DNA of 64,000 nucleotides. It comes from Alphaproteobacteria bacterium. GTDB taxonomy: Bacteria > Pseudomonadota > Alphaproteobacteria > CAAHEQ01 > UBA3637. A program made the position numbers and the translations under genes. Of this stretch, positions 877 through 27,331 are shown piece by piece (the first letter of the stretch is position 1; each line of letters begins with the position of its first letter). The notes under the pieces are model-generated. The model searched no databases. It saw nothing but the letters and a program-made list of their open reading frames with translations, and was not told the origin of the DNA. The stretch is from the NCBI GenBank assembly GCA_045613285.1, contig JAZLAQ010000017.1, positions 8,264 through 72,263 of the forward strand, in the 5' to 3' direction.

Positions 877-962
877 TATTGTTTTTTAAAAATATATTTG
901 CTTCCTTTTTACAAAAAATTGTAGATTTCTGAAAAAATATCGCAAAAATCACGAAAAAGCAC

Positions 963-991
963 TTGACATTTGATTTAAAAAAATGTATTAT
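963..991 (+). promoter_or_regulatory. Sigma70-like promoter for tRNA-Trp/secE/nusG
   Basis: TTGACA (963-968), 17-nt spacer, TATTAT (986-991). Confidence 0.45.
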
Positions 992-1048
992 AAGCCGTCC
1001 GAAGTCTTGTTCGGGGTATTTTTGTACCTTGAAGGAAACTAAAAAAAT

Positions 1049-1124
1049 AGGGGCATAGCTCAACTGGTAGAGCGTCGGTCTCCAAAACCGAAGGTCGTGG
1101 GTTCGATCCCTACTGCCCCTGCCA
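1049..1124 (+). tRNA. trnW: tRNA-Trp (anticodon CCA)
   Basis: 76-nt cloverleaf AGGGGCA...TGCCCCTGCCA with anticodon loop CTCCAAA and T-loop GGTTCGATCC. It sits immediately upstream of secE. Confidence 0.95.
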
Positions 1125-1145
1125 TAAAAAGAAAAGGAAGAAAAC

Positions 1146-1334
1146 ATGAAAGTATCACCCGCTTTATTTGTTCGTCAGGTTAAACAGGAAGTGTCTAAAA
1201 TTACATGGCCAACCCGTGCCGAAACATTGCAGGGAACGATTGCGGTTATGGTTATCTGTTTAATTGTTGCTGCTTTTTTGTTTGTTGTAGATTCCTTGTT
1301 TGCCGGTATTATTCAGAAAATCGTAGAGTTATAG
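1146..1334 (+). CDS. secE: Preprotein translocase subunit SecE
   Basis: 62 aa with the motif VKQEVSKITWPTRAE followed by one TM helix. It lies directly upstream of nusG. Confidence 0.9.
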   Translation: MKVSPALFVRQVKQEVSKITWPTRAETLQGTIAVMVICLIVAAFLFVVDSLFAGIIQKIVEL

Positions 1335-1346
1335 GGGGCGGAATAT

Positions 1347-1874
1347 ATGCGTTGGTATGTGATACATACATATTCAGGATTTGAAAATAAAATTGCCAGT
1401 TTTATTATGGAACAGGCCGCTAAAAAAGGCATTGCGGATAAGGTGGAACAGGTTTTAGTTCCTCAGGAAAAGGTTATATCCGTTCGTAATGGTGTAAAAA
1501 AAGAAATGGATCATAAAATTTTGCCGGGATATGTTCTGATTAAAATGGAAATGACCGAAGAAACATGGCATTTAGTTAAAGGAACGCCTAAAGTAACAGG
1601 ATTTTTGGGGGGTAAAAAGCCGACTCCAATTACGGAAAATGAGGCAATGCGTATTCTAAATCAGGTTCAGGAAGGCGCTGAAAAGCCACGTACGGTTGTG
1701 TCTTATAGGGTTGGTGAAACGGTTCGTGTTGTTGATGGTCCGTTTGCTTCTTTTATCGGAACAGTGGAAGAAGTTGATGAAGAAAAACAGCGTTTAAAAG
1801 TTTCTGTTTCTGTTTTCGGACGGGCAACCAATGTTGATTTAGATAATGTTCAAGTAAAGAAAGAGAGTGTCTAA
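1347..1874 (+). CDS. nusG: Transcription termination/antitermination factor NusG
   Basis: N-terminal MRWYVIHTYSGFENK (NGN domain) and a C-terminal KOW region (GETVRVVDGPFASFIGTVEEVD). Confidence 0.95.
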   Translation: MRWYVIHTYSGFENKIASFIMEQAAKKGIADKVEQVLVPQEKVISVRNGVKKEMDHKILPGYVLIKMEMTEETWHLVKGTPKVTGFLGGKKPTPITENEAMRILNQVQEGAEKPRTVVSYRVGETVRVVDGPFASFIGTVEEVDEEKQRLKVSVSVFGRATNVDLDNVQVKKESV

Positions 1875-2068
1875 TGTTTAGTTTGTTGGATAGAATGATT
1901 TTTGGTCGGGATGGTTTGTCTAATGCGATCGCTCAGGCTTTTGTGGAATATGAAAAAGAAATGAATAGAGGAAGGGTTGTTGTAAATCATAAAAGTCATG
2001 ATAGGAAAAATTTGGTTTTGGCTAAAAAAGCAGAAATAGCACGTCAAGGGAATTTAGTTCGGGACTAA
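1874..2068 (+). CDS. Hypothetical 64-aa protein between nusG and rplK
   Basis: Its ATG shares one base with the nusG TAA (TAATG). No recognisable family. Confidence 0.3.
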   Translation: MFSLLDRMIFGRDGLSNAIAQAFVEYEKEMNRGRVVVNHKSHDRKNLVLAKKAEIARQGNLVRD

Positions 2069-2188
2069 TAACGAAAAATCAGCCGGAAAGCAAAACCGAT
2101 TCGACTTTCTGGTTGTTGTGGGAGATGAGCCATCATCGGACCACGAAACTTCAAAAGGAATCGGATATTTTTTATAAGAGGTTATAAA

Positions 2189-2617
2189 ATGGCAAAAAAG
2201 ATTATTGGCTTTATTAAACTTCAAATTGAAGCTGGTAAAGCAAACCCTTCACCTCCGGTAGGTCCGGCTTTAGGTCAACGGGGTTTAAATATTATGGAAT
2301 TTTGTAAAGCATTCAATGCTAAAACACAGAAAGAAGAACCAGGTTCTCCGATTCCTGTGATTATTACGGCTTATGCTGATAGAACATTTTCTTTTGTGAC
2401 AAAATTGCCACCGGTTAGCTACTTAATTAAAAAAGCAGCTAACTTGAAGAGTGCTTCTAAAGAACCTGGTCGTTCTAAAGCTGGTAAAATTACAAAAGCT
2501 CAGGTTAAAGAAATCGCTGAAAAGAAAATGCCGGATATGAACTGCCATACAGTTGAATCTGCTATGGAAATGGTCGCCGGTCAGGCTCGTTCTATGGGTA
2601 TTGAAGTGGTGGAGTAA
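2189..2617 (+). CDS. rplK: 50S ribosomal protein L11
   Basis: [43 protein letters not shown] is a canonical L11 sequence. Confidence 0.97.
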
Positions 2618-2621
2618 GATT

Positions 2622-3314
2622 ATGCAATACGGAAAAAGATTAAAAAAAGCTTATGAATCCATTGATACCAATAAGGTTTATGCTTTGGATGAAGCAATTG
2701 CAATGGTAAAAGCCGGTGCAACTGCTAAATTTGATGAAACAATCGATATCGCTGTTCGTTTGGGTGTTGATCCTCGTCAATCTGATCAGATGATCCGAGG
2801 TGCCGTGTCCTTGCCGGCCGGAACAGGTAAAACTTTAAAAGTTGCTGTTTTTGCTAAAGGTCCTAAGGCTGAAGAAGCACGTAAAGCAGGTGCCGATATC
2901 GTTGGTGATGAAGATTTAATGAATGACATTTTAGGTGGTAAAATTGACTTCCAACGTTTAATTGCAACGCCGGATATGATGGGTGTTGTCGGTCGTTTGG
3001 GTAAAGTCTTGGGACCGAAAGGTTTAATGCCAAACCCAAAATTGGGAACCGTTACAATGGATGTAACGAATGCTGTTAAGGCTGCTAAGGCCGGTCAGGT
3101 TCAATTCCGTGTAGATGCCGCTGGAGTGGTCCATGCTGGTATCGGTAAAGCCAGTTTTGATGCCGATAAAATTGCCGAAAACGTAAAAGCCTTTGTGAAA
3201 ACATTGGTTGCTATGAAACCGGCTTCTTCTTCAGGTTTATACTTGAAACAAGTTGCTATTTCCAGTACGCAAGGCGTCGGTGTAAAAGTGTCTGTTCCGA
3301 CAATTGTCGGATAA
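2622..3314 (+). CDS. rplA: 50S ribosomal protein L1
   Basis: The internal ATG at 2622 ([15 protein letters not shown]...) lies just after the rplK stop. The listed 2553 start would overlap rplK by 65 nt. Confidence 0.93.
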
Positions 3315-3574
3315 GAAATTTTGTCGGTACTTGGAAACAGGTACCGACAAGAACCTGTCCTAGACTGCGGGTATTCAATCACGGGATTGAATTTAAGGGA
3401 AAGCATTCCGCCGGCATAGACAGAAATGAATCAGTGATTCCTTATGGAGTTAAAGAGGATTGTTTCTAGGCAGGAAAATAAGGTGGGTTAGTCAAAAGAA
3501 TTTTTGAAAAACCTGTGTAGAAACCGAGGCGAGGGGAAAGCCCGACCCTCACATGAAAATGCGGAGACATTATC
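3315..3574 (+). promoter_or_regulatory. Long structured rplJ leader (candidate L10/L12 autoregulatory leader)
   Basis: 260-nt non-coding gap before rplJ. It contains a 10-bp stem, ttgtcggtac/gtaccgacaa, at about 3325-3354. The assignment rests on position and known L10-leader biology, not on a consensus match. Confidence 0.4.
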
Positions 3575-4063
3575 GTGAAACGTGAAGAAAAACAACAACT
3601 GATTTCCGAAATGAAAGATGTTTTTACCAACTCTGCTTTGGTAGTTGTCGCTTTAAATAAAGGTTTGACAATGCCTGAAACAACAGAATTGCGTAACAAT
3701 GTCCGTCAAGACGGTGCCAGTTATCGTGTTGCTAAAAACCGTTTGGCAAAATTGGCTCTGGCAGGAACACCGTGCGAATCCATGGCGGATTTGCTGGTTG
3801 GCCCAACAGCTATCGCATATTCAGCAGATGAAATTGCTGCTGCACGTGCAGTTGTTAAAATGGCCAAAAACAACGACCGTTTTGAAATTGTCGGCGGTAT
3901 TATGAACGGACAAAAGATTGATGCCCAAATGGTTAAAAATTTGGCTGCATTGCCTTCTTTGGACGAACTGCGTGGCAAACTTGTTGGGTTGTTGCAAGCA
4001 CCTGCTGGTCAGTTGGCCAGACTTGCAAAAGCTTATTCCGAAAAGGATCAAGCTGCTGCTTAG
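3575..4063 (+). CDS. rplJ: 50S ribosomal protein L10
   Basis: GTG start. Conserved L10 sequence (LRNNVRQDGASYRVAKNRLAKLAL) and position before rplL. Confidence 0.93.
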   Translation: MKREEKQQLISEMKDVFTNSALVVVALNKGLTMPETTELRNNVRQDGASYRVAKNRLAKLALAGTPCESMADLLVGPTAIAYSADEIAAARAVVKMAKNNDRFEIVGGIMNGQKIDAQMVKNLAALPSLDELRGKLVGLLQAPAGQLARLAKAYSEKDQAAA

Positions 4064-4101
4064 AACTAAATTATTAACAATTAAATTAAAGGAAATTTAA
4101 A

Positions 4102-4467
4102 ATGACTGATTTAAACAAAATTATTGATGAACTGTCTGCTTTGACAGTTTTAGAAGCCGCTGAATTGGCTAAAATGTTAGAAGAAAAATGGGGCGTTTCT
4201 GCTGCTGCTCCGGTTGCTGTTGCTGCTGCTGGTGCTGTTGCTGCTGCTGAAGAAAAAACAGAATTTGATGTTATCTTGGCTGACGGTGGTGCAAATAAAA
4301 TTGCCGTTATTAAAGAAGTCCGTACAATTACAGGCTTGGGCTTGAAAGAAGCTAAAGACTTAGTTGAAGGTGCACCGAAGGAAGTTAAGAAAGGTGTTGC
4401 CAAAGACGAAGCTGAAAAATTGAAAAAACAATTAGAAGCCGCTGGCGCTAAAGTTGAATTGAAGTAA
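4102..4467 (+). CDS. rplL: 50S ribosomal protein L7/L12
   Basis: Ala-rich hinge and the C-terminal motif [24 protein letters not shown]. Confidence 0.97.
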
Positions 4468-4548
4468 TTCGTTCTTCAAAAATCGCATTGGGTCGCATCA
4501 ATTTAAGTAAAATTGATGACGGCCCGATAGCGGTAAATATAACGAATG

Positions 4549-4581
4549 GGTCTCGGTGCCCTTACACCGACCAGAATTTTT
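4549..4581 (+). terminator. Candidate rplL-rpoB intergenic attenuator
   Basis: Bulged hairpin ggtc(tc)ggtg/caccgacc followed by agaattttt. A partial terminator at this position is known in other bacteria. Confidence 0.35.
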
Positions 4582-4605
4582 GATTATTAAAATGGGGAAA
4601 AACGC

Positions 4606-7600
4606 ATGATCAAACAAGAAACGAATCGCAGAAGAGTTCGTAAAAATTTCGGAAAAATTGAAGCCGTTGCACAAATGCCAAATCTGATTGGGGTTCAAAC
4701 AGATTCTTATACTGAGTTTTTGCAATGGGGTGTGCCTGTTTCGGAACGAAAAGATATCGGTTTGCAGGCCGTTTTTAAATCTATCTTTCCAATTCATGAC
4801 TTTGCCGGTCGTGGTGATTTAGATTTTGTTGAATATGAATTGGATATGCCGAAATTTGATGTTGATGAGTGCTTAAAACGCAGTTTGACTTATGCGGCTC
4901 CGGTACGTGCTAAGTTGCGCTTGGTTGTTTGGGATGTTGACCAGTCCACAGGTGCACGTTCTTTTAAGGATATGAAAGAACAGGATGTTTATATGGGGGA
5001 TTTGCCCTTAATGACGGAAAAAGGGACTTTTATCGTCAATGGAACGGAACGGGTTGTTGTTTCCCAAATGCATCGCTCCCCAGGTGTTTTCTTTGATCAT
5101 GATAATGGTGAAACACATTCTTCCGGTAAATTTTTATTTGCAGCCCGTATCATTCCCTATCGCGGGTCTTGGATTGATTTTGAATTCGATGCAAAAGATT
5201 TATTGTATGTTCGGATTGACCGTCGTCGGAAATTGCCAGTATCTTCATTTTTGTATGCATTAGATAGCGAATATACAGCACAAAAACGTTTGGAAGCTAC
5301 TGCCGCCGGAACTGAAATTGATCCGAGCGATGTTTACGGCATGAGCAAAGAAGAAATCTTGAATTATTTCTATCAGACGGTTGTTTTCAAAAAAGATAAA
5401 AAGAATTGGAAAACAGCTTTTGAACCGGCTTTATTAAAAGGGCAAAAATTGGCCTTTGATTTGGTTGATGCTAAAACCGGTAAAGTTGTTTTTGAAAAAG
5501 GGCAAAAACTGATTTCTGCCAAAGCAAATAAACTGAAAAAGGAAGGTTTGGAAGAATATGTTTTATCTGAAGATGAATTAATCGGTCGTTTTGTTGCAAC
5601 GGATATCGTTGATGAAAAGACCGGCGAGGTTGTTATGGAAGCCGGTAATGAGCTGACAGAAGACGACTTTGAAAAAATCAAAGAAATGAAATTGAAGGAA
5701 TTGCCGATACTGCATATTGATTATGTGACAGTTGGTCCTTATATCCGGAATACTTTGATTGCGGACAGAAATACGACCCGTGAAGAAGCATTGATTGATA
5801 TTTATAAAATTATGCGTCCAGGTGAATTGCCTGTTGTAGAAACGGCAGATGCTTTATTCCGTAGTTTGTTCTTTGATTTAGAACGTTATGATTTATCAGC
5901 TGTCGGTCGGGTTAAAATGAACGCTCGTTTGGGTTTCAATAATGAAGAAGTTTCTGATGAAATCCGCGTCCTACGTAAAGAAGATGTTTTGGGTGTCTTG
6001 AAAACCTTGATAGAGATTAAAGATGGCCGTGGTGAAGTTGATGATATTGATAACTTGGGTAACCGTCGAGTTCGTTCTGTTGGTGAATTGATGGAAAATC
6101 AATATCGTTTAGGTTTGCTTCGAATGGAAAGAATGGTTCGTGAACGGATGACTTCCAGTGATATTGATACCGTTATGCCATCCGATTTAATTAATGCTAA
6201 ACCGTTGTCTGCTGCGGTCAGAGAGTTCTTTGCCAGCAGTCAGCTCAGTCAATTTATGGATCAGAATAATCCGTTATCTGAAATTACACACAAACGGCGT
6301 TTGTCTGCATTGGGACCTGGTGGTTTAACACGTGATCGTGCCGGTATGGAAGTTCGTGACGTTCATCCGACCCATTATGGACGGATTTGTCCGATTGAAT
6401 CACCGGAAGGTCAAAATATCGGTTTGATAAACTCATTGGCAAGCTTTGCCCGTATCAATAAGTATGGTTTTATTGAAACACCTTATCGTAAGGTTGTTGA
6501 TGGTAAAGTAACCAGTGAAGTTGTTTATTTATCCGCTATGGAAGAAGCACGCTATAATATTGCTCAGGCAAATGCGGCTTTGAATGATAAAGGCGAATTT
6601 ACAGAAGAATTGGTAACGTCTCGTCATGCTGGTGAAGTTGTTTTAGTAAAGCCAGAAGAAATTGAATTTATTGATGTTTCTCCGAAGCAAGTTGTTTCTG
6701 TTGCAGCGGCCTTGATTCCATTCTTGGAAAACGATGACGCTAACCGTGCTTTGATGGGTTCAAACATGCAACGTCAGGGTGTTCCTTTGTTGAAAGTTCA
6801 GGCTCCGTTGGTTGGTACAGGCATGGAAGCAGTTGTTGCGAAAGATTCTCGGGCTGCTATTACGGCAAGACGTTCCGGGGTTGTGCAACAGGTTGATTCT
6901 TCCCGTATCGTTATTCGGGCTACGGATGAATTGAGTGCTACGGCATCTGGTGTAGATATCTATACACTAGAAAAATTCCAACGTTCTAATCAGGGAACCT
7001 GTATGACACAGCAACCGATTGTTAAAACCGGTGAAGTTGTCAATAAAGGTGATATTATCGCAGATGGTCCTTGTACACAGTTGGGTGAATTGGCTTTGGG
7101 ACGTAACGTATTAGTTGCTTTCGTTCCTTGGAATGGGTATAACTATGAAGACTCTATCTTGATTTCTGAACGGATTGCCCGTGATGATGTGTTTACATCT
7201 ATTCACTTGGAAGAATTTGAAGTGACGGCCCGTGATACAAAGTTGGGTCAGGAAGAAATCACACGCGATATTCCGAATGTCGGTGAAGAAGGCTTGAAAA
7301 ACTTGGATGAAACCGGTGTTATCTATATCGGTGCAGAAGTTAAAGCCGGGGATATCTTGGTTGGTAAGGTGACACCGAAGGGTGAAACAATCATGACACC
7401 GGAAGAAAAATTATTGCGGACAATCTTTGGTGAAAAAGCTGCTGATGTTCGTGATTCTTCTTTGCGGGTACCTCCGGGAATTTCTGGTACGGTTGTTGAT
7501 GTACGTGTCTTTACGCGTCGTGGATTGGAAAAAGACGAACGTGCTTTGTCTATTGAACAGTCTGAAATCAGCCGTTTGGCAAAAGACCGCGATGATGAAA

Positions 7601-8787
7601 AGGCTATTTTACAAGGCAGTTTCTATGATCGTATTCGTGGTTTATTGGCTGGTCAGAAAGTTTCTAAATCTGTTGGTTTTAAGGCCGGTACCGTTTTGAC
7701 GGTTGATGCTTTGACGGCGGTTAAAAATGAAGACTTACGTAAAATCAATGTCGAAAATGACAAAGTTATGGCTGAAATAGAACAGTTATTAGCAACATTG
7801 GATGAAGCCGAAAAAACATTACAGGCTAAATTTGAAAATCGTGTTGAAAAATTACAACGCGGTGATGAAATGATGGCTGGTGAATTAAAGAAAATTAAAG
7901 TCTTTATTGCCACGAAACGTAAATTGCAACCTGGTGACAAGATGTCTGGTCGTCATGGAAACAAGGGTGTTGTTTCCCGTGTTTTACCGATCGAAGATAT
8001 GCCTTATACCGAAGACGGTACGCCGATGGATATCGTTTTAAATCCGTTGGGTGTTCCTTCCCGTATGAATGTGGGGCAGATTTTGGAAACACACTTAGGT
8101 TATGCTTGTCGTGAATTAGGTCGTCAGATTGGTGAAGTTGTAGAACAGGTAAAAGCACAAGGTGCTGATATGGCTGATTTGAAGGCTAAATTAAAAGATG
8201 TTTACGGTGATCGTGAATATAATAATAAAGTGGCCGATATGACAGATACAGAAATTTTGTCAATGGCTGAAAACCTGAAAGACGGTTTGCCGATTGCAAC
8301 TCCTGTTTTTGATGGTGCTCACCAGGAAGACATTGATAATATGTTGAAGAAAGCTGGTTTGAGTGTATCCGGTCAGGTAACTTTATATGATGGTTTGACG
8401 GGTGAACCGTTTGATCGTCCGGTAACAATCGGTTACATGTATATGCTGAAGTTACACCACTTGGTTGATGAAAAAATTCACGCTCGTTCCATCGGACCGT
8501 ACAGTTTGGTAACACAACAACCGCTTGGTGGTAAGGCTCAATTCGGGGGTCAACGTTTTGGTGAAATGGAAGTGTGGGCATTAGAAGCTTATGGTGCAGC
8601 CTATACATTGCAGGAAATGTTGACGATTAAGTCCGATGACGTTTCAGGTCGTATCAAAGCCTATGAAACAATTATCCGTGGTGACAACAACTTTGAATCC
8701 GGTATTCCGGAATCTTTCAATGTTTTAACCAAGGAAATGCGTTCTTTGGCATTAGATGTTGAACTGAATCAAAATGAAAGCAAATAA
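4606..8787 (+). CDS. rpoB: DNA-directed RNA polymerase subunit beta
   Basis: 1393 aa containing canonical beta-subunit blocks ([37 protein letters not shown]). Confidence 0.99.
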
Positions 8788-8841
8788 TTAGACAGGGGAA
8801 AGACCTCTTTCCCCTTTAACCCAAGAAAAAAGGCAAAAAAA

Positions 8842-11800
8842 ATGAATGAATTAATTACAAATTTTAGTCCTGTTGCTAATCCTCAATCTTTTGATGATAT
8901 CCGAATTTCTATCGCATCACCCGAAAAAATTCGCAGTTGGTCATTTGGTGAAGTGACCCGTCCTGAAACAATAAACTATCGGACATTTAAACCGGAAAAA
9001 GATGGTTTGTTCTGTGCTAAGATTTTCGGACCTGTTAAGGATTATGAATGTTTGTGTGGAAAATACAAACGGATGAAATATCGTGGTATTACCTGTGAAA
9101 AGTGCGGTGTTGAAGTAACATTGTCAAAAGTGCGTCGGGAACGTATGGGACATATCGAATTGGCTTGTCCGGTAACACATATCTGGTTTTTAAAGTCTTT
9201 ACCGTCTCGAATCGGGACTCTGTTAGACATGATGTTAAAAAATTTGGAAGCTGTTTTGTACTTCGAAAAATACATCGTGATTGAACCGGGGTTGACAGGT
9301 TTAAAATTACATGATTTATTGACGGAAGAACAATATCAGCAAGCCGTAGAAGAATATGGTGAAGATACTTTCCGTGTTGGTATCGGGGCAGAAGCTATCA
9401 AAGAAATGTTGTCTCAGATTGATTTAGCAGGTGAAGCGGCTTCTTTGCGTGCTGAATTGATTGAAACAAAATCTGATATGAAACGCAAAAAGATTGTTAA
9501 GAAATTGAAATTGGTAGAATCTTTCTTAGAATCCGGTTCGCGTCCGGAATGGATGGTTTTGGATGTATTGCCAGTTATTCCGCCTGAATTGCGTCCGTTG
9601 GTTCCTTTAGATGGTGGTCGTTTTGCTACATCTGATTTGAATGATTTATATCGTCGTGTTATCAACAGAAATAATCGTTTAAAACGGTTGTTGGAATTAC
9701 GTGCACCGGAAATTATTGTTCGTAATGAAAAACGTATGTTGCAGGAATCTGTTGATGCTTTGTTTGATAATGGTCGTCGTGGTCGTGCTGTTGCTGGTAT
9801 GAACAAACGTCCTTTGAAATCTTTGGCTGATATGTTAAAAGGGAAACAAGGTCGTTTCCGTCAAAACTTGCTTGGTAAACGTGTTGACTACTCCGGTCGT
9901 TCTGTTATTACGGTCGGTCCGGAATTGATGTTACATCAATGCGGTTTACCAAAAAGAATGGCTTTGGAATTGTTTAAGCCTTTTATCTATTCTAAATTAG
10001 AACAATATGGTATGGCTTCTACAATTAAAGCTGCCAAGAAAATGGTTGAAAAAGAACGCCCAGAAGTATGGGATATCCTGTCCGAAGTTATTCGTGAGCA
10101 TCCGGTTTTGTTAAACCGTGCTCCGACATTGCACCGCTTGGGTATTCAAGCCTTTGAACCGGTGTTGATTGAAGGTAAAGCCATTCAATTACATCCGCTT
10201 GTTTGTACAGCCTTTAACGCAGACTTTGACGGTGACCAGATGGCCGTTCACGTTCCGCTTTCTATGGAAGCTCAATTGGAAGCCCGTGTTTTGATGATGT
10301 CTACAAACAACATCTTGTCTCCGGCATCCGGTAAGCCGATTATTGTGCCGACACAAGACGTTATTTTGGGATTGTATTATATGTCTATGGCTTTAGACGG
10401 CGAACCCGGGGAAGGTATGGTCTTTTCATGTCCGCAGGAAATTGAACACGCTTTGTTTGAACGTGTTGTGACATTACACTCAAAAATTAAAGTCCGGTTG
10501 ACAATAATGGAAGATAACGGTGTTAAACAAACACGGGTTGTTGAAACAACACCAGGACGGATGAAGTTGGCTGCCTTATTGCCAGACAATAGTAAAATTC
10601 CGTTCAGTTTGATGAACCGTTTAATCCGGAAAAAAGAAGTTTCCGATATTATTGATGCTGTTTATCGTTTCTGTGGTCAAAAAGAAACCTGTATTTTTGC
10701 CGATCGGATTATGAATTTGGGTTATCGTCAGGCTGCTAAATCCGGTATTTCTTTCGGTAAGGACGATTTGATTGTGCCGACAGAAAAGAAAAAATTGTTG
10801 GCTGAAACAGAAAAGAAAACAAATGAGTTTGAACGTCAATACCAAGACGGTTTGATTACCCGTTTGGAAAAGTACAACAAGGTTGTTGACGCTTGGGCGT
10901 CTTGTACGGATAAAATTGCCGGTGCGATGATGCAGGGTATTTCAAAAATTGAACCAGGTAAACCAGTCAATTCCGTCTATATGATGGCTAATTCCGGAGC
11001 CCGTGGTAGTGCTGCTCAGATGAGACAGTTGGCCGGTATGCGTGGGTTGATGGCTAAACCATCGGGTGAAATTATTGAAACGCCTATTCGTTCCAACTTT
11101 AAAGAAGGCTTGACCGTTATGGAATACTTTAACTCCACGCACGGTGCCAGAAAAGGGTTAGCTGATACGGCTTTGAAAACAGCGAACTCAGGTTATTTAA
11201 CCCGTCGCTTGGTTGATGTGGCTCAGGATGCTATTATTACCATTGATGATTGTGGTACGGATAATGGAATTACCATACAACCGATTATTGAAGGTGGTGA
11301 TGTTATTGCAACAACCGGTGAACGGATTTTAGGCCGTACAGCTGCCGAAGATATTAAAGATCCAGCTACTGGCGAAGTTATCGTTTCAAAAAATACATTG
11401 ATTGATGAAAATGATGTAGAAAAGATCGATAATGCCGGTGTTGATTCGGTAAAAATTCGTTCTGTTTTAACTTGTGAAGCTGAAGACGGTATTTGTGCAG
11501 CTTGTTATGGACGTGATTTAGCCCGTGGAACGGCAGTTAACTTGGGTGAAGTTGTCGGTATTATTGCCGCTCAATCCATTGGTGAACCGGGAACTCAGTT
11601 GACAATGCGTACTTTCCATATCGGTGGTGCGGCTCAACGTGGTGCGGAACAGTCCAATATTGAAGCAGCATTTGATGCTAAAATCAAGTTAGGTAACTGT
11701 AATACTATCAAAAATTCTGCTGGCGATGTTATTGTCTTGTCACGGAATTGTGAAGTTTCTCTGTTGGATTCCAATAATCGTGAAAAAGCCCGTCATAAAG

Positions 11801-14472: not shown

Positions 14473-15732
14473 TTACTTGTAAATCAATAAATCACCCTGT
14501 GTCGTTAATAACAGCATTGTTTCCTTTACCAAAACAGGTGCTTTTAACAGAGGGGATATTTTTTCTTGTCTTTTTTGCTGACCGGTTTTGGCATCTAAAA
14601 ATACCATATTACCCTCTGATGAGGTCAATATAACCTGATTATTGACTAAAACAGGAGCAAACCAATCAGCTGTTTTACTTAATTCTTTTAAGTCTTTTTC
14701 CCAAAATAAAGTACCGTTCTGTTTATCCAAGCAAAGTAACTTATTGTGATTTGTTATCACAAAGACGGAATTGCCACTGATAACCGGTGTTTCACGACCA
14801 CCAAAGGGGAGAGTATAAATCGGCATACCTGTTTCCAGTTGCCATAATCCGCTACGACCGGCATTGCCCACCATAAAAATAGATTTTCCTTCTATGACAG
14901 GGGCAGATGTAATCTGTGGCATATCCAAGAGGGTATTGTATGTTTTGTTTTTCCATAATGTTTCCGCCCATAGCAAGACACCAGTTTCAACATCAAAAGC
15001 ATTGACCCGTCCCGTTGTTGTCGGCATAACAACAATATCCCCTTGAACTGCTGGCGTAGCTACACCAAAGAAATTTGTAATGGTTGGTTTGTCGCCTTTA
15101 TATTGCCACAGTTCTTGACCATCCTTTGTTTTCAAAACAAATAATTCATTATTGATGGATGTAACAAACAAACGTCCTTCATCAGCCGTTGGAGAAGAAC
15201 GTAAAGGAACTTTTAAATCTTTTCGCCATTGTTCTTTACCGGACAGGTTTGTTGCAATAACCAATCCATTCCCGGATACAGCATAAAGAGAATTGCGATA
15301 AATAGATAATCCGACACTTTTAGATGACGTTCCATGAATATCTGCTAATTTTTTACGCCATTTTTGTTGGCCTGTTTTTAAATCGGTAGCCTGTAAAACA
15401 AAACGGCTATCCAGTGTATAAACCGTTGTTCCGAAAATAACAGGACCTGCCAAACTGAAACCTTCTTCATCAACACCATCGCCAATAGATACAATGGCTG
15501 TTTGCTGTATATCTTTCCCTAAGCGTGTATGTGGTCTGTTATTTCGAGAGTTCTTATACTGCATTGTCCAGTTTTCTGTTTTTTCAGCAGAGGATAATTG
15601 CGGTTTACCAGTGCTTTTTTCAAGGGATACTTCCGCGTCAAAAACGGAACGCCTTCCGGATAAGGGAGCTATATCCCCTTTTTCAGTACATCCAAACAAC
15701 AACAGAACGAATAATAACAGTAATTTTTTCAT
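14473..15732 (-). CDS. bamB: Outer-membrane assembly lipoprotein BamB-like (PQQ-type beta-propeller)
   Basis: Lipobox LLLFGC, repeated W-containing propeller blades, and conserved position upstream of der. Confidence 0.7.
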   Translation of the reverse strand: MKKLLLLFVLLLFGCTEKGDIAPLSGRRSVFDAEVSLEKSTGKPQLSSAEKTENWTMQYKNSRNNRPHTRLGKDIQQTAIVSIGDGVDEEGFSLAGPVIFGTTVYTLDSRFVLQATDLKTGQQKWRKKLADIHGTSSKSVGLSIYRNSLYAVSGNGLVIATNLSGKEQWRKDLKVPLRSSPTADEGRLFVTSINNELFVLKTKDGQELWQYKGDKPTITNFFGVATPAVQGDIVVMPTTTGRVNAFDVETGVLLWAETLWKNKTYNTLLDMPQITSAPVIEGKSIFMVGNAGRSGLWQLETGMPIYTLPFGGRETPVISGNSVFVITNHNKLLCLDKQNGTLFWEKDLKELSKTADWFAPVLVNNQVILTSSEGNMVFLDAKTGQQKRQEKISPLLKAPVLVKETMLLLTTQGDLLIYK

Positions 15733-15736
15733 GTAA

Positions 15737-16447
15737 TTATTTCACTTCATTTTGTAACATAACCAAACGTTCACGTAAGGAAGGTTGTAGATTTTCCTGT
15801 GTTAAAGCCATCTCTAAAACCGCTTTAGCCGAATTATTATCACCGGATAAACGATAGAGTAATGCCGATAATTCGGAAGCGTTTCCAAAGAAAACAGACT
15901 CTTTGTCGGCCAATATTGGGGATAAAAGAGCCAATAATTCAGATGTATTTCCGTTATCAACCTGATGCCCGACATAGGAAATTAGGCAAGCTTGGCGTAA
16001 AGCGTTTGGCACATCATCGTTATCTGCCAGACCTTTTAAAATTATTAAGGCTTGTTTTTTATCACCTGTTTTCAGTAAAATACCGGCCTGTTCAATGTCA
16101 GCCAGATATCGGTAACCTGTTTTGCCGGTTTCGGATAAGTTTTTGAAATCGGCAAGGGCTTGCTCATTATTATTTTGAACAGCCTGAATCATAGCAGCTT
16201 CGTATTTATCGGATTCAGATAAACGAACCTTGTTCCACCAAGATTGATAAAATTCCATACCGATTGTAGCTAAAATAACCGCAATGGCGCCGCCAATAAT
16301 CAAAAAACGGTATTTTTTCCACCATTTTACTAACTGTTCTTGGCGAAGTTCTTCATCTACTTCCCGTTCAAAAATTCTTTGCTGAACCGGACAAGTTCCT
16401 GTTCCACAATCCTGTTTATTGCAATCACAATTTTTATCTTTTTTCAT
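15737..16447 (-). CDS. YfgM-like single-TM TPR protein with a Cys-rich N-terminal extension
   Basis: One TM helix (FLIIGGAIAVILATIG) followed by a helical TPR-like region. The yfgM-bamB-der arrangement is conserved. Confidence 0.55.
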   Translation of the reverse strand: MKKDKNCDCNKQDCGTGTCPVQQRIFEREVDEELRQEQLVKWWKKYRFLIIGGAIAVILATIGMEFYQSWWNKVRLSESDKYEAAMIQAVQNNNEQALADFKNLSETGKTGYRYLADIEQAGILLKTGDKKQALIILKGLADNDDVPNALRQACLISYVGHQVDNGNTSELLALLSPILADKESVFFGNASELSALLYRLSGDNNSAKAVLEMALTQENLQPSLRERLVMLQNEVK

Positions 16448-17380: not shown

Positions 17381-17467
17381 GCCTCTGTGGCGAAACTGGT
17401 AGACGCGACAGACTCAAAATCTGTTGATAGCAATATCATGCTGGTTCAAGTCCGGCCAGAGGTACCA
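17381..17467 (+). tRNA. trnL: tRNA-Leu (anticodon CAA)
   Basis: 87 nt, long variable arm, anticodon loop CTCAAAA, T-arm GGTTCAAGTCC, 3' CCA encoded. Confidence 0.93.
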
Positions 17468-17501: not shown

Positions 17502-17839
17502 ATTTATTTTCAAGCGCTTGTACCGGTTCGGTAACTGCCCTTTCAGAAAGTGCTAAATTTTGTGAACCATCGAACTTTTAATATCCAATTCCGCCTAAAT
17601 TTCAAACGGCGTTTGATGGGACAAACTTGTTTTCAATAAGGCTCATTGCTTTGCGCATAAAAATTGTCCACTGGACATTTTTTATTTACGCAGTTATCGA
17701 ACTATTAAATGCAAAGTACCTTAAAAACAATAACTTATTCAAGTTCAAGTTCAAGTCCGGCAAGAGTTCCAGGAAAAAATTGACTTTTATAATATTTTAG
17801 GTTAAAATCATGTTATCACCTAAATGAAAGGTTGTTTGA

Positions 17840-18936: not shown

Positions 18937-20091
18937 TTAACGGCATAATGCGTAGTAAGTATCACGATTGCGAGAATCATATCCAATAGCTGACAGGTTA
19001 AGAATAATACGGTGTGAGAGACAAGAACCGCTTGGAGGATTATCTGCTAACCAAATAGAGCCTGTGCTTCCTAACAAAGAAAGTGTCTTTGCTGTCTCTG
19101 AACATTTTTCCTCTCCTTCACAGATGCAATAATACGAGGGGTCAGTTGTTTTTGAGTGTTCATAATAACACACAATTTCCCCTGATTCATCCGATATACC
19201 CAAGTCTGATATAGTTAGCAGTTGTTTCCCATGTGATTGACATAGATTAGCTGCTCCCCACCAATTCATCGCAGTCGAACTCTTGTAAACAGTTAAAGTA
19301 CCACTTGGAAGTTCTAATGTATAAGGCATTAAGACACCCTTGTCAGTACAAGCCCCTGTTCCTGGATCACTACAAGTTCCTTTAGAAAATTTACAATATT
19401 CAGTTTCTTCATTACAATCACTATTTTTTGTACAATTCCCTTTTGGAACAGAACAGGTATAAATCGATGAATCAGCTCCCTGTGTACAATAGGTTCCTTC
19501 TTCACAACATTGTTCACCACACATGAACGTTCCATCATTACATTTACATTCTCCGTGATAACAAGTTAAATTCGACATACATACAACTCCCTCACATTCA
19601 GGATCTGTTATGCTTTCGCTTTTGTTATCTATTCCGATCCCATAGATAAATACCATTTCATTTGTATTTTTACAATCGTCTATTTCTACATCTGCTAATG
19701 TTTTTCCTGTATTTATAGCTATGGTAACTTCAGCTCCTTCTGTTTTTCTTATCAGTTCTTCACAAACAGCAGATTTTATACCAGATACTGTTATTCCGAC
19801 TCCATTTTTCACTTTTAAAATATTTGGGTCAAATGTCCCATACTCTGTGGTATTTTTAAATTCCCGCATAGAAAGTTCATGGCCTGAAGATCGTTGTGAT
19901 AACAACACTATAGCACGTTTTGAAGTTTCTGTAAGTAATGTGTTTGCATGATGCTTATTCATTAAATAAGTATATCCTACAATACCACCAACGGATAATA
20001 CACCGACAATTGCCAGAGTTCCCAGCATTTCCACCATCGAACGCCCTTGTTCTTGTTGTTTGTTTTCTGTTACTTTTGCTTTTCTAGTCAT
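18937..20091 (-). CDS. Prepilin-like N-terminus, Cys-rich module and C-type-lectin-like C-terminal domain protein
   Basis: QG/RSMVEMLGTLAIVGVLSVGGIVGY has Gly at -1, Glu at +5 and a hydrophobic helix. A central stretch is dense in Cys (CEGVVCMSNLTCYHGECKCNDGTFMCGEQCCEEGTYC...). The C-terminal part reads WWGAANLCQSHGKQLLTISDLG...YYALCR. Confidence 0.6.
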   Translation of the reverse strand: MTRKAKVTENKQQEQGRSMVEMLGTLAIVGVLSVGGIVGYTYLMNKHHANTLLTETSKRAIVLLSQRSSGHELSMREFKNTTEYGTFDPNILKVKNGVGITVSGIKSAVCEELIRKTEGAEVTIAINTGKTLADVEIDDCKNTNEMVFIYGIGIDNKSESITDPECEGVVCMSNLTCYHGECKCNDGTFMCGEQCCEEGTYCTQGADSSIYTCSVPKGNCTKNSDCNEETEYCKFSKGTCSDPGTGACTDKGVLMPYTLELPSGTLTVYKSSTAMNWWGAANLCQSHGKQLLTISDLGISDESGEIVCYYEHSKTTDPSYYCICEGEEKCSETAKTLSLLGSTGSIWLADNPPSGSCLSHRIILNLSAIGYDSRNRDTYYALCR

Positions 20092-20218: not shown

Positions 20219-20422
20219 CTATTTACAAACAACAGAATAGTATGTTTTATTAGTACGTTGCGTATCAATATCTACTCTTGGATTATGATTCAGAGTAACA
20301 TTGTATGCTAAGCATGAATTATTATCGGAAGTCCACCAATTGGAACCAGCCAAACGACCTTTAAATCTGGCCCAAGAACAATTATTAAAAGATTTAGATG
20401 ACTTAGAAGCAAAGGAATTACC
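20219..20422 (-). pseudogene. Start-less C-terminal remnant of a paralog of the 18937-20091 protein
   Basis: The minus-strand frame reads ...NCSWARFKGRLAGSNWWTSDNNSCLAYNVTLNHNPRVDIDTQRTNKTYYSVVCK*. This aligns with ...LLGSTGSIWLADNPPSGSCLSHRIILNLSAIGYDSRNRDTYYALCR*. The frame has no Met and is bounded upstream by TAG. Confidence 0.5.
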
Positions 20423-20721: not shown

Positions 20722-20931
20722 TTATTCTCGATTACGAGATTTTCCACGTAGTATCTTTAACATCATTTTTCTCTGGTGTTCCGGGTATGTAGAAACATAG
20801 CGCAACAGATCTTCTTGTTCCATACTTCTAAATATAGAATCGATATCTGTTCCACGACTGTATCCCCCTTTACGGCTGCTTGGCATTGTGTTTCCGGCAA
20901 CGGGAGCTATGCTTTCTATATCTTCATACAT
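20722..20931 (-). CDS. Hypothetical small protein (69 aa from MYEDIES...)
   Basis: GAAAGGA RBS before the ATG at 20931. A hairpin plus T-run terminator lies downstream at about 20652-20686. Confidence 0.4.
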   Translation of the reverse strand: MYEDIESIAPVAGNTMPSSRKGGYSRGTDIDSIFRSMEQEDLLRYVSTYPEHQRKMMLKILRGKSRNRE

Positions 20932-21200
20932 ATTGTATCCTTTCTTTTTTAGAAAATCAGAGTATAACAAAAATTAGTTAAGAAGTCAATCTTTTTGAAA
21001 AGAATTGACGAAAAAATACAACGAGATTTATTCTGATAATAAAAATAGAGAATATAATGGAATAATTTGTTTGGTATTATTTTGAGTTGTAATATAAATA
21101 AAAATATTTTGTATATGGAAATGATCTACTGATGTTTTGAAAAGTTGTTTGACTTTTTTATAGAAATGTGTTATAATCCGCCTGAAAAGAGAACCTAATC

Positions 21201-22574
21201 ATGAGTCCCCTCAGAAATAAAAGAGACTTAATTTCTTGTTATATAGATTATCCGGAAAAACCACAAGACATTAAAATTTCTTTTGAGGTTGATCCGGAAG
21301 AAGGCATTATTTTGAAAAAATACAAGATTCCGAATGTTGAGGAATTTTCAAAACTTGCTTCTCCTTTTTTAAAACATTTTGTAAGTATTCCGGATTTTTT
21401 CTCTCGTATGAAGGACATTATTGAAACAACGGTCAAATTACGATTGTTTGCCGAATATATGCAATTCAATGTGCAGGAACAAAAACAATTCATTTTTCAA
21501 AATGTCCAACAAAAAATTCAAAAAATGCCTTTTCGGGTTGTTATGCCGGATGCCATGAATAAAAAAGATCGCCTAAGATATAAAAATTTAAGGTTAAAAT
21601 CGGAACTGAAAAAAAATCAGCTTTCCAACTACTCGATGGGTGAAATGGCTGTTCTTTTTGATTTTGATACAAAAGCAAGAGATTTTTTTGCGATTATCAA
21701 AAATTATCCTATTGCATTAAAAGCATCATTAAATAACGACAAAAAAATGAAAAATGCACTGTATAAGGATAGTCAGCTTTTTTCTGATTTAGTGCATATA
21801 TTATTTTTTATTGCTGACTATTGCGATAAAAATCAGGATAATTTTACACAAAAAAATTGGAATGATTTTTTATTTCAAGCAGAATATGATTATATGTTAT
21901 CATATGCTCAGGAAAACGTGGTAAATCCCTCAATGATGTATTTGGTCGATAATGTCAGACGCTTTTTGCATGAGGCTCTGATTGAAGAACATGGTTTAAA
22001 AATTGCCCCTACAAAAGCAGAGGCATCCTTTATGTTAAAGAAAGATAAAACGAAAATTTATAAGTTGGCCGAAAAATATGGATATATTGAAAATGTTGAA
22101 GCGTTTTTATTGAGTGAAAAGATACGTAATAAAATTGCTCATCCGGATGAACATATACAGGATATCTCTCGAAAAGCACTTGAAATATCAAATTTATATA
22201 CCAATTTTGTATTTCGTTTTATTGATGAAAATTTTATCACTGATTATTATGCTAAAACACCGGTTTCGATCCCTTTGGAAGAAGTAAATGCGCAATATCA
22301 AGCCTATCAAAAGCTAAGACATGCAGAAATTATCTCAGATGAATTGGATCTTTTATTACCCGAGGATATAAAGCATAAAAACAGACAAAAAAAGCTCTCT
22401 TTTCTTAATAAAAAAGGGATCCTTAATTCTCGTGAAACGGCGGAAATAGAAGAATTACTGCTGAATCGAAATGCAGTAGCGCATGGTCAAAGGATTGTGT
22501 GTCAGGCTAGGGGACAATCGATACCAGATTTTTTTGCTATACGACACGCATTGGTTCACAGACAACATTCATAA
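21201..22574 (+). CDS. Orphan protein with multiple R-x4-H (HEPN-type) motifs; putative RNase or toxin
   Basis: 457 aa. The motifs are EKIRNKIAHP (R309/H314), LLNRNAVAHGQ (R423/H428) and a third, IRHALVHR, near the C-terminus. The N-terminal 300 aa match no family I recognise. Confidence 0.55.
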   Translation: MSPLRNKRDLISCYIDYPEKPQDIKISFEVDPEEGIILKKYKIPNVEEFSKLASPFLKHFVSIPDFFSRMKDIIETTVKLRLFAEYMQFNVQEQKQFIFQNVQQKIQKMPFRVVMPDAMNKKDRLRYKNLRLKSELKKNQLSNYSMGEMAVLFDFDTKARDFFAIIKNYPIALKASLNNDKKMKNALYKDSQLFSDLVHILFFIADYCDKNQDNFTQKNWNDFLFQAEYDYMLSYAQENVVNPSMMYLVDNVRRFLHEALIEEHGLKIAPTKAEASFMLKKDKTKIYKLAEKYGYIENVEAFLLSEKIRNKIAHPDEHIQDISRKALEISNLYTNFVFRFIDENFITDYYAKTPVSIPLEEVNAQYQAYQKLRHAEIISDELDLLLPEDIKHKNRQKKLSFLNKKGILNSRETAEIEELLLNRNAVAHGQRIVCQARGQSIPDFFAIRHALVHRQHS

Positions 22575-22710: not shown

Positions 22711-23070
22711 CTATCGTTCCAAAAATTCCTTTTGTCGTTTTAACCAAGCCTGATATTGATTCCAATCTTCTTGAATTTCATTGCGCAGATCGGGATTTTC
22801 TTTGGCAAAAGTGTAGACTGCCTGAGATACAATTTTGGAATCATCTTGATGTTTTGGACCATCCCATGGCAGAAACTGGACGTCTGTCTGACCAGAACTT
22901 GGGTTATAATAAACGCTACCGATTGAAACGGCATCTTCAAAGGCGATGTTATTATTTCTTAAATAATCCCGATGGGAACATTCACGATTTTTGGAATCCC
23001 GATATTGACTTTTTGTCCAGATAGCAACTTCAGGTGTTGAGTTTTCTTTTTGAATAACGACATAACGCAT
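22711..23070 (-). CDS. Hypothetical protein (119 aa)
   Basis: A strong AGGAGG RBS lies 7 nt before the ATG at 23070. Preferred over the overlapping plus-strand ORF 22596-23024. Confidence 0.55.
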   Translation of the reverse strand: MRYVVIQKENSTPEVAIWTKSQYRDSKNRECSHRDYLRNNNIAFEDAVSIGSVYYNPSSGQTDVQFLPWDGPKHQDDSKIVSQAVYTFAKENPDLRNEIQEDWNQYQAWLKRQKEFLER

Positions 23071-23222: not shown

Positions 23223-23999
23223 TTACCGTTGTTTTTGGATAACATAACGAAAAAATGAAGCATTGTCTTTTCTTATCTGGCTGAATTCTGAATCTGAAAG
23301 TTGTTTACGACTTTCCCTGACACGTTCAATCATTTCTTTTCGTCTTATTCCATATTCGTTATCTGTATAGGATACATGCAAACGTGGGCGGCCTAATAAT
23401 TTTTCAAGCCAATTTTGTTTTTGTTTTATCTTGACGATTTTACCATCTTTATGGATCTCTTGTTGAGATAAATTCCCATTATAGTCGTATGTAGAACGCG
23501 TGCAGTTTTCACCAAATAAAATCTGATACTTTCCTAATATATAACGGGGATAATGATGTGATAGTCTTCCTTTAAAACACACGCTGGGAAAATCAATATC
23601 ATTTTCAGAATTTGCACGATAAATACTTCTTTCTAATAATTCATCAAATTCATTGGAAATTTCTTCACGGATATAATCGGACTTTTTTACGTAATTAAAT
23701 ATAAACTTAGGAGTTTTATTTGAATCATAAAAAATTCTACATAATGCATTACCATTGAATCTGACTTCTTCGACTAATTGTTCTTTTATTTTGGAAGTGG
23801 TAACAAATTTTTTATATCCACTTGAGGTTTCCTGAAAGCGGAAAATACCTTTATTGAAATAATGATATCCCGATTTATCGGATTCTAATTTAATATATTT
23901 GTATTCTTCTTGATTATTTTTGGGGTAATCTGCCTGAAATGTAATTTTTAAATCAGGATTTAATCGCATAAAAAGATCAATAAATTTACTATTACTCAT
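23223..23999 (-). CDS. Hypothetical protein (258 aa from MSNSKF...)
   Basis: AGGAG RBS before the internal ATG at 23999. No family recognised. Confidence 0.5.
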   Translation of the reverse strand: MSNSKFIDLFMRLNPDLKITFQADYPKNNQEEYKYIKLESDKSGYHYFNKGIFRFQETSSGYKKFVTTSKIKEQLVEEVRFNGNALCRIFYDSNKTPKFIFNYVKKSDYIREEISNEFDELLERSIYRANSENDIDFPSVCFKGRLSHHYPRYILGKYQILFGENCTRSTYDYNGNLSQQEIHKDGKIVKIKQKQNWLEKLLGRPRLHVSYTDNEYGIRRKEMIERVRESRKQLSDSEFSQIRKDNASFFRYVIQKQR

Positions 24000-24218: not shown

Positions 24219-24295
24219 TGGCGCGCTTGGCGAGATTCGAACTCACGACCCTTGCCTTCGGAGGGCAATACTCTATCCAGCTGAGCTACAAGCGC
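24219..24295 (-). tRNA. trnR: tRNA-Arg (anticodon CCG)
   Basis: Reverse complement GCGCTTGTAGCTCAGCTGGATAGAG...CTCCGAA...GGTTCGAATCTCGCCAAGCGCGCCA, 77 nt. The downstream hairpin acaccc/gggtgt acts as a terminator. Confidence 0.93.
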
Positions 24296-26302: not shown

Positions 26303-27331
26303 ATGCAAAGAACTGCAGAAGCGGTGTCTGTTGGCCATCCGGATAAAACAGCCGATTATATTTCAAGTTATATTTTAGACAGATTGATTGAACAAGATTC
26401 AAATGTGCGGTATGCCGTTGAAGTAATGTTAAAGGACAATACAGTTGTCCTTGGTGGTGAAATAACTGGACGGTTTGATTCTTTTAAACCGGAAAATTTT
26501 GTAAAACAGGCTTTGTGTGAAATCGGATATGATGAACGATATGCTGATATTTGGGGAAATAAAGCCATTGATGTTAATCAAATAAAAGTCATCAATCTTG
26601 TTGGGAAACAATCCTCTGAAATCGGACAGGGAATTTTACAAAACGGTTGGGGAGACCAAGGCGTATTTGTTGGATATGCCTGTCAGGGGAAAGGATTGAT
26701 AAATTCGGAATTATATTTAGCTAGAAAACTTAATTTTGCTTTATATCAAAAAGCACGTCAAAGTCAGAATTTGGGGTTGGATATCAAAACACAGATTACG
26801 TTGGCTGAAGATGGTCATATTGAAACAGCCATTGTTGCGATCCCGATGCTGAAATCAGAAGATTTGACGTCATTTATTTATCAAACACTCGGGCAAAAGC
26901 CTAAAAATATTATTGTTAATGGGACTGGGATTTATCAGATGCATTCCAGTATCGCAGATTGTGGTATTACCGGTCGGAAATTAGCGTGTGATTTTTATTC
27001 AACAGCTTCTCCAATCGGGGGGGGATGTCCTTGGACAAAGGATGGCAGTAAGGCCGATTTAACTTTGAATTTGCTTGCTCGCCAATTGGCTGTTGAAAAT
27101 CTGTCGCTTAATGACGAATGTTTTGTTTATCTCTCGTCATGTATTGGTCGTAGTGAATTGATGGGGTGTTGTGTTAAAACAGTATTGGATGGTAAAATAA
27201 CAACTAAAAATATGGTATGTCAATATGATCCTCGACAACTGATAAAGTTATTTAGTCTAGATAAACCTATCTATACAAAATTATGTTTGAATGGTATAAC
27301 ACAAACTATTCTAACAATGAATACTATTTGA
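26303..27331 (+). CDS. metK: Divergent, short S-adenosylmethionine synthetase-like protein
   Basis: It retains GHPDKTADYIS, GWGDQG, DIKTQI, GITGRK and GGGCPWTKDGSKADLT blocks. It is 342 aa, and several canonical MetK blocks are altered. Confidence 0.6.
   Translation: MQRTAEAVSVGHPDKTADYISSYILDRLIEQDSNVRYAVEVMLKDNTVVLGGEITGRFDSFKPENFVKQALCEIGYDERYADIWGNKAIDVNQIKVINLVGKQSSEIGQGILQNGWGDQGVFVGYACQGKGLINSELYLARKLNFALYQKARQSQNLGLDIKTQITLAEDGHIETAIVAIPMLKSEDLTSFIYQTLGQKPKNIIVNGTGIYQMHSSIADCGITGRKLACDFYSTASPIGGGCPWTKDGSKADLTLNLLARQLAVENLSLNDECFVYLSSCIGRSELMGCCVKTVLDGKITTKNMVCQYDPRQLIKLFSLDKPIYTKLCLNGITQTILTMNTI

Follow-up and report, generated by a model that had tools for sequence, protein, structure and literature searches.

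A small, previously undescribed family of partnerless proteins with two HEPN-type motifs in one chain

HEPN RNases normally need two chains for each active site, and Cas13 is the well-known exception. A 64,000-nucleotide stretch of DNA from an uncultured gut alphaproteobacterium (GenBank assembly GCA_045613285.1, contig JAZLAQ010000017.1, positions 8,264 to 72,263 of the forward strand; here called the window) encodes a 457-amino-acid (aa) protein in which an earlier note, made from the sequence alone, had recognised two motifs of the R-N-x-x-x-H kind. Is this a HEPN protein with both halves of an active site in a single chain, does it work without a partner, and what is it for? We find that the protein very probably belongs to the HEPN superfamily. 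It fits no named HEPN family and represents a small, previously undescribed one (i.e., a new family and an unusual tandem variant inside a very well-known superfamily, not a new kind of system). The gene and the parts of its product are as follows.

21201..22574, + strand: open reading frame (ORF) of 457 aa with an ATG start, single copy and monocistronic, with which the homologs align end to end
22125..22142, + strand: HEPN-type motif 1, RNKIAH (aa 309-314), at the C terminus of helix 299-313; H314 falls in the loop that follows
22467..22484, + strand: HEPN-type motif 2, RNAVAH (aa 423-428), at the C terminus of helix 410-427
22542..22559, + strand: third RxxxxH, RHALVH (aa 448-453), located by motif script
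21201..21842, + strand: predicted N-terminal alpha/beta domain (about aa 1-214), modelled by AlphaFold 2 (AF2) with strands at 24-42, 111-114, and 144-176 plus helices
21843..22220, + strand: HEPN-like helical unit 1 (about aa 215-340), with helices 217-268, 272-281, 283-292, 299-313, and 322-337
21948..21959, + strand: acidic-basic pair D250..R253 (family consensus LVExTRxFL), in the long helix 217-268 of unit 1
22221..22571, + strand: HEPN-like helical unit 2 (about aa 341-457), with helices 343-352, 359-383, 388-391, 395-404, 410-427, and 444-456

A script run on the translation returned the ORF, the coordinates, and the residue numbers of RNKIAH and RNAVAH just as the earlier note had given them; motif 2 starts 114 residues past motif 1. 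In 20,000 shuffles of the 457-aa protein, the probability of at least one RNxxxH was 0.037 and that of at least two was 0.0007. Conservation counts for more than these chance figures in establishing that the two motifs are real. On the basis of a 35-sequence family alignment, whose members fall to about 18% identity, R309 and H314 of motif 1 are invariant (35/35 each), position 310 is either D (18 members) or N (17 members), and P315 is kept in 31 of the 35 sequences. H428 of motif 2 is also invariant (35/35), while R423 is present in 29 members, N424 in 32, and G429 in 27. Upstream of motif 1, position 250 is acidic (E or D) and position 253 is R in all 35 sequences. The reading proposed from the window alone had been staked on conservation of the motifs in homologs, and the homologs conserve them to this degree. 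The third RxxxxH, which had been listed with the two others, does not belong with them: it starts 25 residues after R423 (a spacing previously given as 24), and it is lost outside the closest relatives (i.e., in P0012, P0013, P0014, and others). Since RHALVH is unconserved and lies within the terminal helix, it is not a HEPN motif, and we rejected it as a catalytic element and regard it as irrelevant here.

A distant subgroup of about 410 to 420 aa (P0035, P0036, P0037, P0039, P0042, and P0045 of a second alignment, A2) has Y, C, or G in place of R423. The same proteins keep N-x-x-A-H and carry an insert of 15-25 residues in unit 1. This pattern suggests that unit 2 may be degenerating or re-specialising in the subgroup.

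The predicted structures place both motifs alike. The full-length AF2 model had a predicted local distance difference test score (pLDDT) of 77.5 and a predicted TM-score (pTM) of 0.74, and a model of aa 212-457 built from the 35-sequence alignment reached a pLDDT of 88.6 and a pTM of 0.80. In both models, each motif ends a helix, its histidine opens the loop to a final helix (322-337 after H314; 444-456 after H428), and short helices are inserted ahead of the motif helix. Anantharaman et al. (2013; PMC3710099) described the Rx4-6H motif of HEPN domains at the end of core helix 3 or the start of the loop to helix 4, together with a polar residue (N, D, or H) after the R, an upstream acidic Ex3[KR] element, and a frequent insert between helices 2 and 3. 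Thus, the helix-end placement of the motifs in both units is the canonical HEPN position, and the E/D250-R253 pair resembles the Ex3[KR] element (PMC3710099). In unit 2, no conserved counterpart of this pair was seen. The two units align with each other motif to motif (hhalign P = 0.011 and 0.006; controls, 0.1 to 0.3), which weakly supports a possible origin by internal duplication.

Because the first HEPN-like unit begins near aa 215-240, the unrecognised N-terminal part is about 210 aa long. Such a part had been noted before and does exist, but it is shorter than the approximately 300 aa then assigned to it. It is the least conserved region of the protein, and in distant relatives the match to the family profile begins only at about position 105-270. 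Neither the Pfam scan nor Foldseek returned a significant profile or fold match for this domain; its longin/TRAPP-like Foldseek matches were weak and were not trusted.

Weak matches to known families converge on HEPN. The window protein alone gave nothing significant in Pfam, NCBIfam, PADLOC, or PHROGs scans, and its best Pfam match was HEPN_Swt1 (E = 0.18; aa 405-432). When all 29 members of alignment A2 were scanned, the Pfam families matched were DUF4145 (5 members), HepT-like (4 members; best, 0.001), HEPN_RiboL-PSP (4 members), HEPN_Cthe2314 (3 members), HEPN_MAE_28990 and HEPN_Swt1 (2 members each), and NTase_sub_bind (1 member). Seven of the eight most-matched Pfam families belong to the HEPN clan. 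The matches cover the motif 1 region in some members and the motif 2 region in others: HEPN_Cthe2314 and NTase_sub_bind fell weakly on unit 1 (in P0019 and P0022), and HepT-like, DUF4145, RiboL-PSP, MAE_28990, and Swt1 fell weakly on unit 2. Among NCBIfam models, HepT_toxin was the commonest (4 members) and HI0074 matched 1 member; among PADLOC models, CARF_HEPN matched 3 members, and RTasHEPN was matched at 2e-4. The HEPN fold is a four-helix up-down bundle. In a Foldseek search of the C-terminal model against the PDB, every match with a probability above 0.2 was a HEPN protein, with E-values of 0.96 or greater throughout. The highest probabilities were those of MtlR (6kcr; 0.80), 1wwp (0.69), 8xeh (0.66), and YutE (1ylm; 0.63); 1wwp also had the highest TM-score of the set (0.56, normalised by target). 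The other matches included the HepT/HEPN toxins 8xdj, 7bxo, 6m6u, 7ae8, 7ae9, 8yuf, and 5yep. Whole-chain Foldseek searches against the PDB and BFVD returned no significant match. The profile and fold searches by which the earlier note had wished its proposal judged therefore speak for HEPN in their convergence, and none of the matches is significant singly. PDB-sequence matches such as those to APPBP1 and ribosomal L29 were set aside as chance.

The protein had been called an orphan, which does not hold in the strict sense. A word-indexed search found 12 relatives, all of them metagenomic and either unnamed or "hypothetical", and a HMMER search of 1.84 billion representatives with the family profile found 37 clusters (50% identity) at E-values up to 0.001. 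The sole name among the relatives is "hypothetical protein", from an Alphaproteobacteria metagenome-assembled genome (MAG). The RpoB of the window shares 83% identity with that of an uncultured Alphaproteobacteria MAG; with those of cultured Alphaproteobacteria, the identity is about 66% or lower. A scan of 185,579 GTDB species representatives, with patterns that reach close relatives only, found no relative.

Whether the protein works alone was judged from its surroundings, of which three features matter here.

17381..17467, + strand: tRNA-Leu(caa), left boundary of the variable islet
21149..21177, + strand: promoter-like site of the sigma-70 type (TTGACT-17 nt-TATAAT, the -10 element being preceded by TG), ending 24 nt ahead of the ATG
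24219..24295, - strand: tRNA-Arg(ccg), right boundary of the variable islet

Both tRNA genes are thus in place, and the G+C content between them is low (29-36%, versus about 39-42% in the flanks), so that the description of the locus as a tRNA-bounded accessory islet stands. Der, BamB, a TPR_21 protein, and a short-chain dehydrogenase/reductase (SDR) are encoded on one side, and RlmE, RsmB/F, a MetK-like protein, and GT8 on the other. None of the six ORFs inside the islet had a profile match in Pfam, NCBIfam, PADLOC, or PHROGs. We compared neighbours across the eight loci with enough flanking DNA (i.e., the window and L001-L004, L085, L087, and L088). The HEPN-family gene has different neighbours in all eight, no neighbour is conserved, and the gene is single copy at every locus, with no paralogs in the same loci. 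No nucleotidyltransferase (NTase) gene adjoins it in the window or the seven other loci, no McrB/McrC-type partner occurs in any locus, and no phosphotransferase system (PTS) genes were found among the neighbours. No cas genes or MNT lie nearby in the window, no repeat arrays were found in 17-25 kb, and Rfam gave nothing near the gene beyond the two tRNAs. The stand-alone status of the gene (no adjacent MNT, CRISPR array, or cas gene) was accordingly confirmed.

The flanks of the homologs have one element in common. The promoter (score, 11 of 12 in the consensus scan) is the sole conserved upstream element, being present in the window, L001, L002, L003, and L088, with analogous sites in L085 and L087; the downstream regions of the homolog loci hold nothing in common. 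Since no flanking protein, RNA, or array is conserved, partners of the MNT, AbiF (RNA), and CRISPR types are excluded as conserved features. The ORFs at 20722-20931, 22711-23070, and 23223-23999, which had been offered as candidate antitoxins, are poor ones because they are read from the other strand and no homologs of them adjoin any other family member. As candidate partners, small upstream ORFs were also rejected, being unrelated to one another across loci, as were an AbiF-like RNA antitoxin and CRISPR-like repeats (no array, no Rfam match, and no common flanking non-coding sequence). The 467-aa homologs P0002 and P0003 carry a 10-residue N-terminal extension that overlaps the conserved promoter (L001, 10001-10033; L088, 9968-10000); their starts were therefore probably called too far upstream, with the true start aligning with the window ATG.

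The distribution of the gene bears on its role. RlmE of the same lineage is represented by more than 120 clusters at 75-91% identity, against about 12 for the close HEPN group. Three relatives with RlmE 85-88% identical to that of the window keep rlmE-rsmB, and their upstream DNA is wholly different and contains no family member. In seven of the eight loci, the G+C content of the HEPN-family gene is below that of its flanks. Its rarity and patchiness within a well-sampled lineage, its low G+C content, and the tRNA-Leu repeat described below all point to an accessory gene that is mobile by history.

The relatives vary in what lies upstream of rlmE. In L090, the same tRNA-Arg(ccg) stands next to rlmE with other cargo (935-3903; ART-PolyVal, a 423-aa unknown protein, and an N6/N4 DNA methylase). 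L091 has a resolvase fragment beside tRNA-Thr upstream of rlmE (9359-9855), and L093 has no islet at rlmE. In the window, the last 18 nt of tRNA-Leu(caa) (17444-17461) recur with one mismatch 305 nt downstream (17749-17766; chance expectation, 0.02), and this repeat looks like an att-type scar of an old integration. No integrase is present in the islet.

We lean toward the view that the protein is a cytoplasmic tandem-HEPN RNase effector, self-inhibited, whose variable N-terminal domain would be regulatory. HEPN RNases need no metal, and each active site is assembled from two HEPN domains, which belong to the same chain in Cas13 and to different chains in HepT and ApeA. In active sites, as in Csm6, HepT, and DARNA, the catalytic histidines are about 8 Å apart. 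On this model, the two C-terminal units would pack as an intramolecular, Cas13-like pseudo-dimer and would form a single site from R309/H314, N424/H428 (with R423 in most members), and E/D250-R253. Such a centre would cleave without metal and leave 2',3'-cyclic phosphate ends. Given that a conserved, near-consensus promoter of its own precedes the gene, and that neither a protein nor an RNA partner is conserved, the enzyme would have to hold itself inactive, most plausibly through the N-terminal domain. This variable alpha/beta domain, a putative regulatory or sensor module, would keep the site closed until a trigger arrives; once active, the enzyme would cleave cellular RNA, possibly tRNA. 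ApeA and DARNA are single-gene defences that pair a HEPN RNase with a non-catalytic sensing domain, and DARNA, whose catalytic centres are blocked in the apo form, becomes active only on a phage cue. Since the gene is rare, patchy, and located in a variable islet, a conflict or defence effector is its most likely role, and it may act in the abortive-infection manner of ApeA or DARNA, as a single gene and not as a housekeeping one. A fuller version of this proposal, which we advance only tentatively, is that the protein is a CRISPR-independent, guide-free, single-chain tandem-HEPN RNase with a Cas13-like intramolecular site and a fast-evolving N-terminal sensor as its gate, which would constitute a new single-gene antiphage system of the abortive-infection kind, confined to uncultured animal-gut Alphaproteobacteria.

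Several results weigh against the self-inhibited tandem-HEPN RNase. No single profile or structure match is significant: the best Pfam match, with an E-value of about 0.001, falls short of the gathering scores; the Foldseek E-values of the C-terminal model against the PDB are all about 1 or higher; PADLOC models gave no match to the window protein at E-values up to 1; and searches of PDB sequences (by phmmer and with profiles of the whole family, unit 1, and unit 2) returned no HEPN entry. One subgroup lacks R423, so a symmetric two-R/two-H site is not family-wide. Recognisable defence genes occur near only one of the eight loci (L001), the others being flanked by housekeeping genes. Finally, the viral contigs scanned, with patterns that reach close relatives only, contained no relative.

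In L001, the defence-type genes lie within 1-7 kb of the homolog (2596-8904 and 14513-15966) and encode a Shedu-type SduA_C protein accompanied by a helix-turn-helix (HTH) regulator, a UvrD-like helicase that bears a Top1-type zinc ribbon, an HD protein, and AbiEii, next to which there is a small partner ORF. The AbiEii gene is 3 kb off, on the other strand, with three genes between.

The rival that survives best, although we think it rather unlikely, shares the HEPN RNase and differs in where its sites form. They would lie between the chains of a homodimer or larger assembly, each unit pairing with its counterpart, as happens in HepT, ApeA, and the DARNA dodecamer. The tandem units would then either make two different sites or divide into a catalytic and a structural unit. 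Most HEPN proteins do dimerise between chains, and a degenerate, structural unit 2 would fit the subgroup that has lost R423. However, H428 is invariant and N424 near-invariant even where R423 is gone, and the two-unit C-terminal model is compact and confident (pTM, 0.80).

It is less likely still that the gene is not a conflict gene at all and encodes a lineage-specific housekeeping nuclease for RNA processing or turnover, with a role like that of Las1 or other HEPN processing enzymes. The rarity of the family relative to RlmE of the same lineage argues against this, as do the absence of the gene from the same locus in three close relatives, its different position in every genome, its G+C content below that of the flanks, and the lack of a close relative among the GTDB species representatives with the patterns used. 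What speaks for a housekeeping nuclease is the constitutive-looking conserved promoter, the housekeeping flanks at most loci, the lack of a partner gene, and a length and architecture that are stable across deep divergence.

We consider it quite improbable that the protein is HEPN-like and non-catalytic (i.e., an MtlR-like regulator or a nucleotide- or ligand-binding module resembling the substrate-binding subunits of NTases). This idea draws on MtlR as the top-probability Foldseek match and on the matches of NTase_sub_bind and HI0074 in one member each. Families that have lost catalysis typically drop the R or the H of the motif (PMC3710099), whereas R309, H314, and H428 are invariant here; the polar residue after the R and the upstream acidic residue are also kept, and NTase or PTS neighbours are lacking.

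That the protein is the toxin of a toxin-antitoxin pair, neutralised by an adjacent small ORF (20722-20970 or 22711-23070) or by a cis RNA as in AbiF, is very improbable. MNT proteins or RNAs commonly serve to neutralise HEPN toxins, and small unannotated ORFs do flank the gene; the comparative context nevertheless largely refutes the idea, because the adjacent ORFs run in the other direction, no homolog of them sits beside any other family member, and the flanks share the promoter only, with no repeats and no Rfam match. Lastly, coincidental motifs in an unrelated all-helical protein, which might be suggested because no match to a HEPN model or structure reaches statistical significance, are scarcely credible in view of the chance probability of two RNxxxH motifs, the invariant R309, H314, and H428 at the canonical helix end, and the strong enrichment of HEPN families among the weak matches in four independent resources.

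Other genes of the window were also noted. At 18937-20091 (- strand), 1.1 kb from the HEPN gene, lies a gene for a 384-aa Cys-rich protein with a prepilin-type N-terminus, which, apart from the HEPN gene itself, is the only islet ORF with a homolog in the other loci. Relatives of this N-terminus occur 5-9 kb from the HEPN-family gene in five other loci (L001, 17650-17859; L002, 17861-18091; L003, 10450-10668; L085, 2732-2872; L088, 3639-3728), with unrelated housekeeping genes intervening, and neither the remainder of the window nor three control loci (62 kb in total) contained any. A 44-aa ORF at 20219-20353 (- strand) is 34% identical over 41 aa to the C-terminus of the prepilin-like protein (E = 0.005 in a single comparison) and may be a decayed paralog fragment. 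At 26303-27331 (+ strand), a 342-aa S-adenosylmethionine synthetase-like protein is encoded, an atypical, shortened MetK whose central domain scored 27.8 bits against a Pfam gathering cut-off of 29.

The protein could be a new single-gene immune effector, and the family illustrates the extent of unannotated conflict machinery in uncultured gut Alphaproteobacteria. Its practical value is modest: the family is tiny, its hosts are uncultured, the superfamily assignment comes from convergent weak evidence, and the activity is predicted.

Among known systems, HepT (DUF86/PF01934; type VII HepT-MntA) comes closest in both sequence and fold signal. The weak matches on unit 2 are most often to HepT-like (Pfam) and HepT_toxin (NCBIfam), the structures 7bxo, 6m6u, 5yep, 7ae8, and 8xeh are among the Foldseek matches, and a "G-[IY]-[IL] ... 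R-N-x-x-x-H" segment is common to HepT and the window family. However, HepT is a homodimer of about 120-150 aa with one HEPN domain and is always accompanied by an MNT nucleotidyltransferase antitoxin, whereas the window family lacks an MNT and combines two units with an additional N-terminal domain in a chain of 457 aa. AbiF (type III toxin-antitoxin), the proposed ancestor of Cas13, is likewise a HEPN RNase with a role in phage defence; it differs in having one HEPN domain, forming a symmetric dimer, and being neutralised by a cis-encoded non-coding RNA, while no conserved cis RNA surrounds the window family.

The nearest systems in lifestyle are ApeA and DARNA (PD-T7-3), antitoxin-free stand-alone genes that combine HEPN with a sensing domain; ApeA senses infection, and DARNA is self-inhibited until a phage cue. 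The ApeA motif RNKITH nearly equals the RNKIAH of the window protein, and DARNA, at 456 aa, is close to its 457 aa. Both have one HEPN domain per chain (N-terminal in DARNA) and build the site by dimerisation or oligomerisation; the window family instead has two C-terminal HEPN units, and PADLOC gave no match at E-values up to 1. CnuE (type III-A CoCoNuT), which is not a CRISPR protein either, resembles the window family in having a pair of HEPN domains on a single polypeptide. Its second motif is shortened to RxH, and it belongs to McrBC-type operons with helicase and coiled-coil parts, which are absent at the window-family loci.

In chain organisation, the nearest system is Cas13 (type VI CRISPR), which also has two HEPN motifs in one polypeptide. 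The window family differs from it in having no CRISPR array, cas genes, or conserved RNA partner, no recognisable crRNA (CRISPR RNA)-binding lobe, and no detectable sequence or fold match. Cas13 proteins are roughly 775-1250 aa long, and the window protein is far smaller. Two HEPN motifs in one partnerless chain is an arrangement otherwise known mainly from Cas13, whose origin through the fusion of HEPN units is under active investigation. If the reading that we favour is true, a 457-aa two-motif protein that needs neither guide RNA nor antitoxin would be a compact natural one-chain solution; on the fuller, tentative proposal, the family would be an independent case in which duplication and fusion turned dimeric HEPN toxins into one-chain enzymes.

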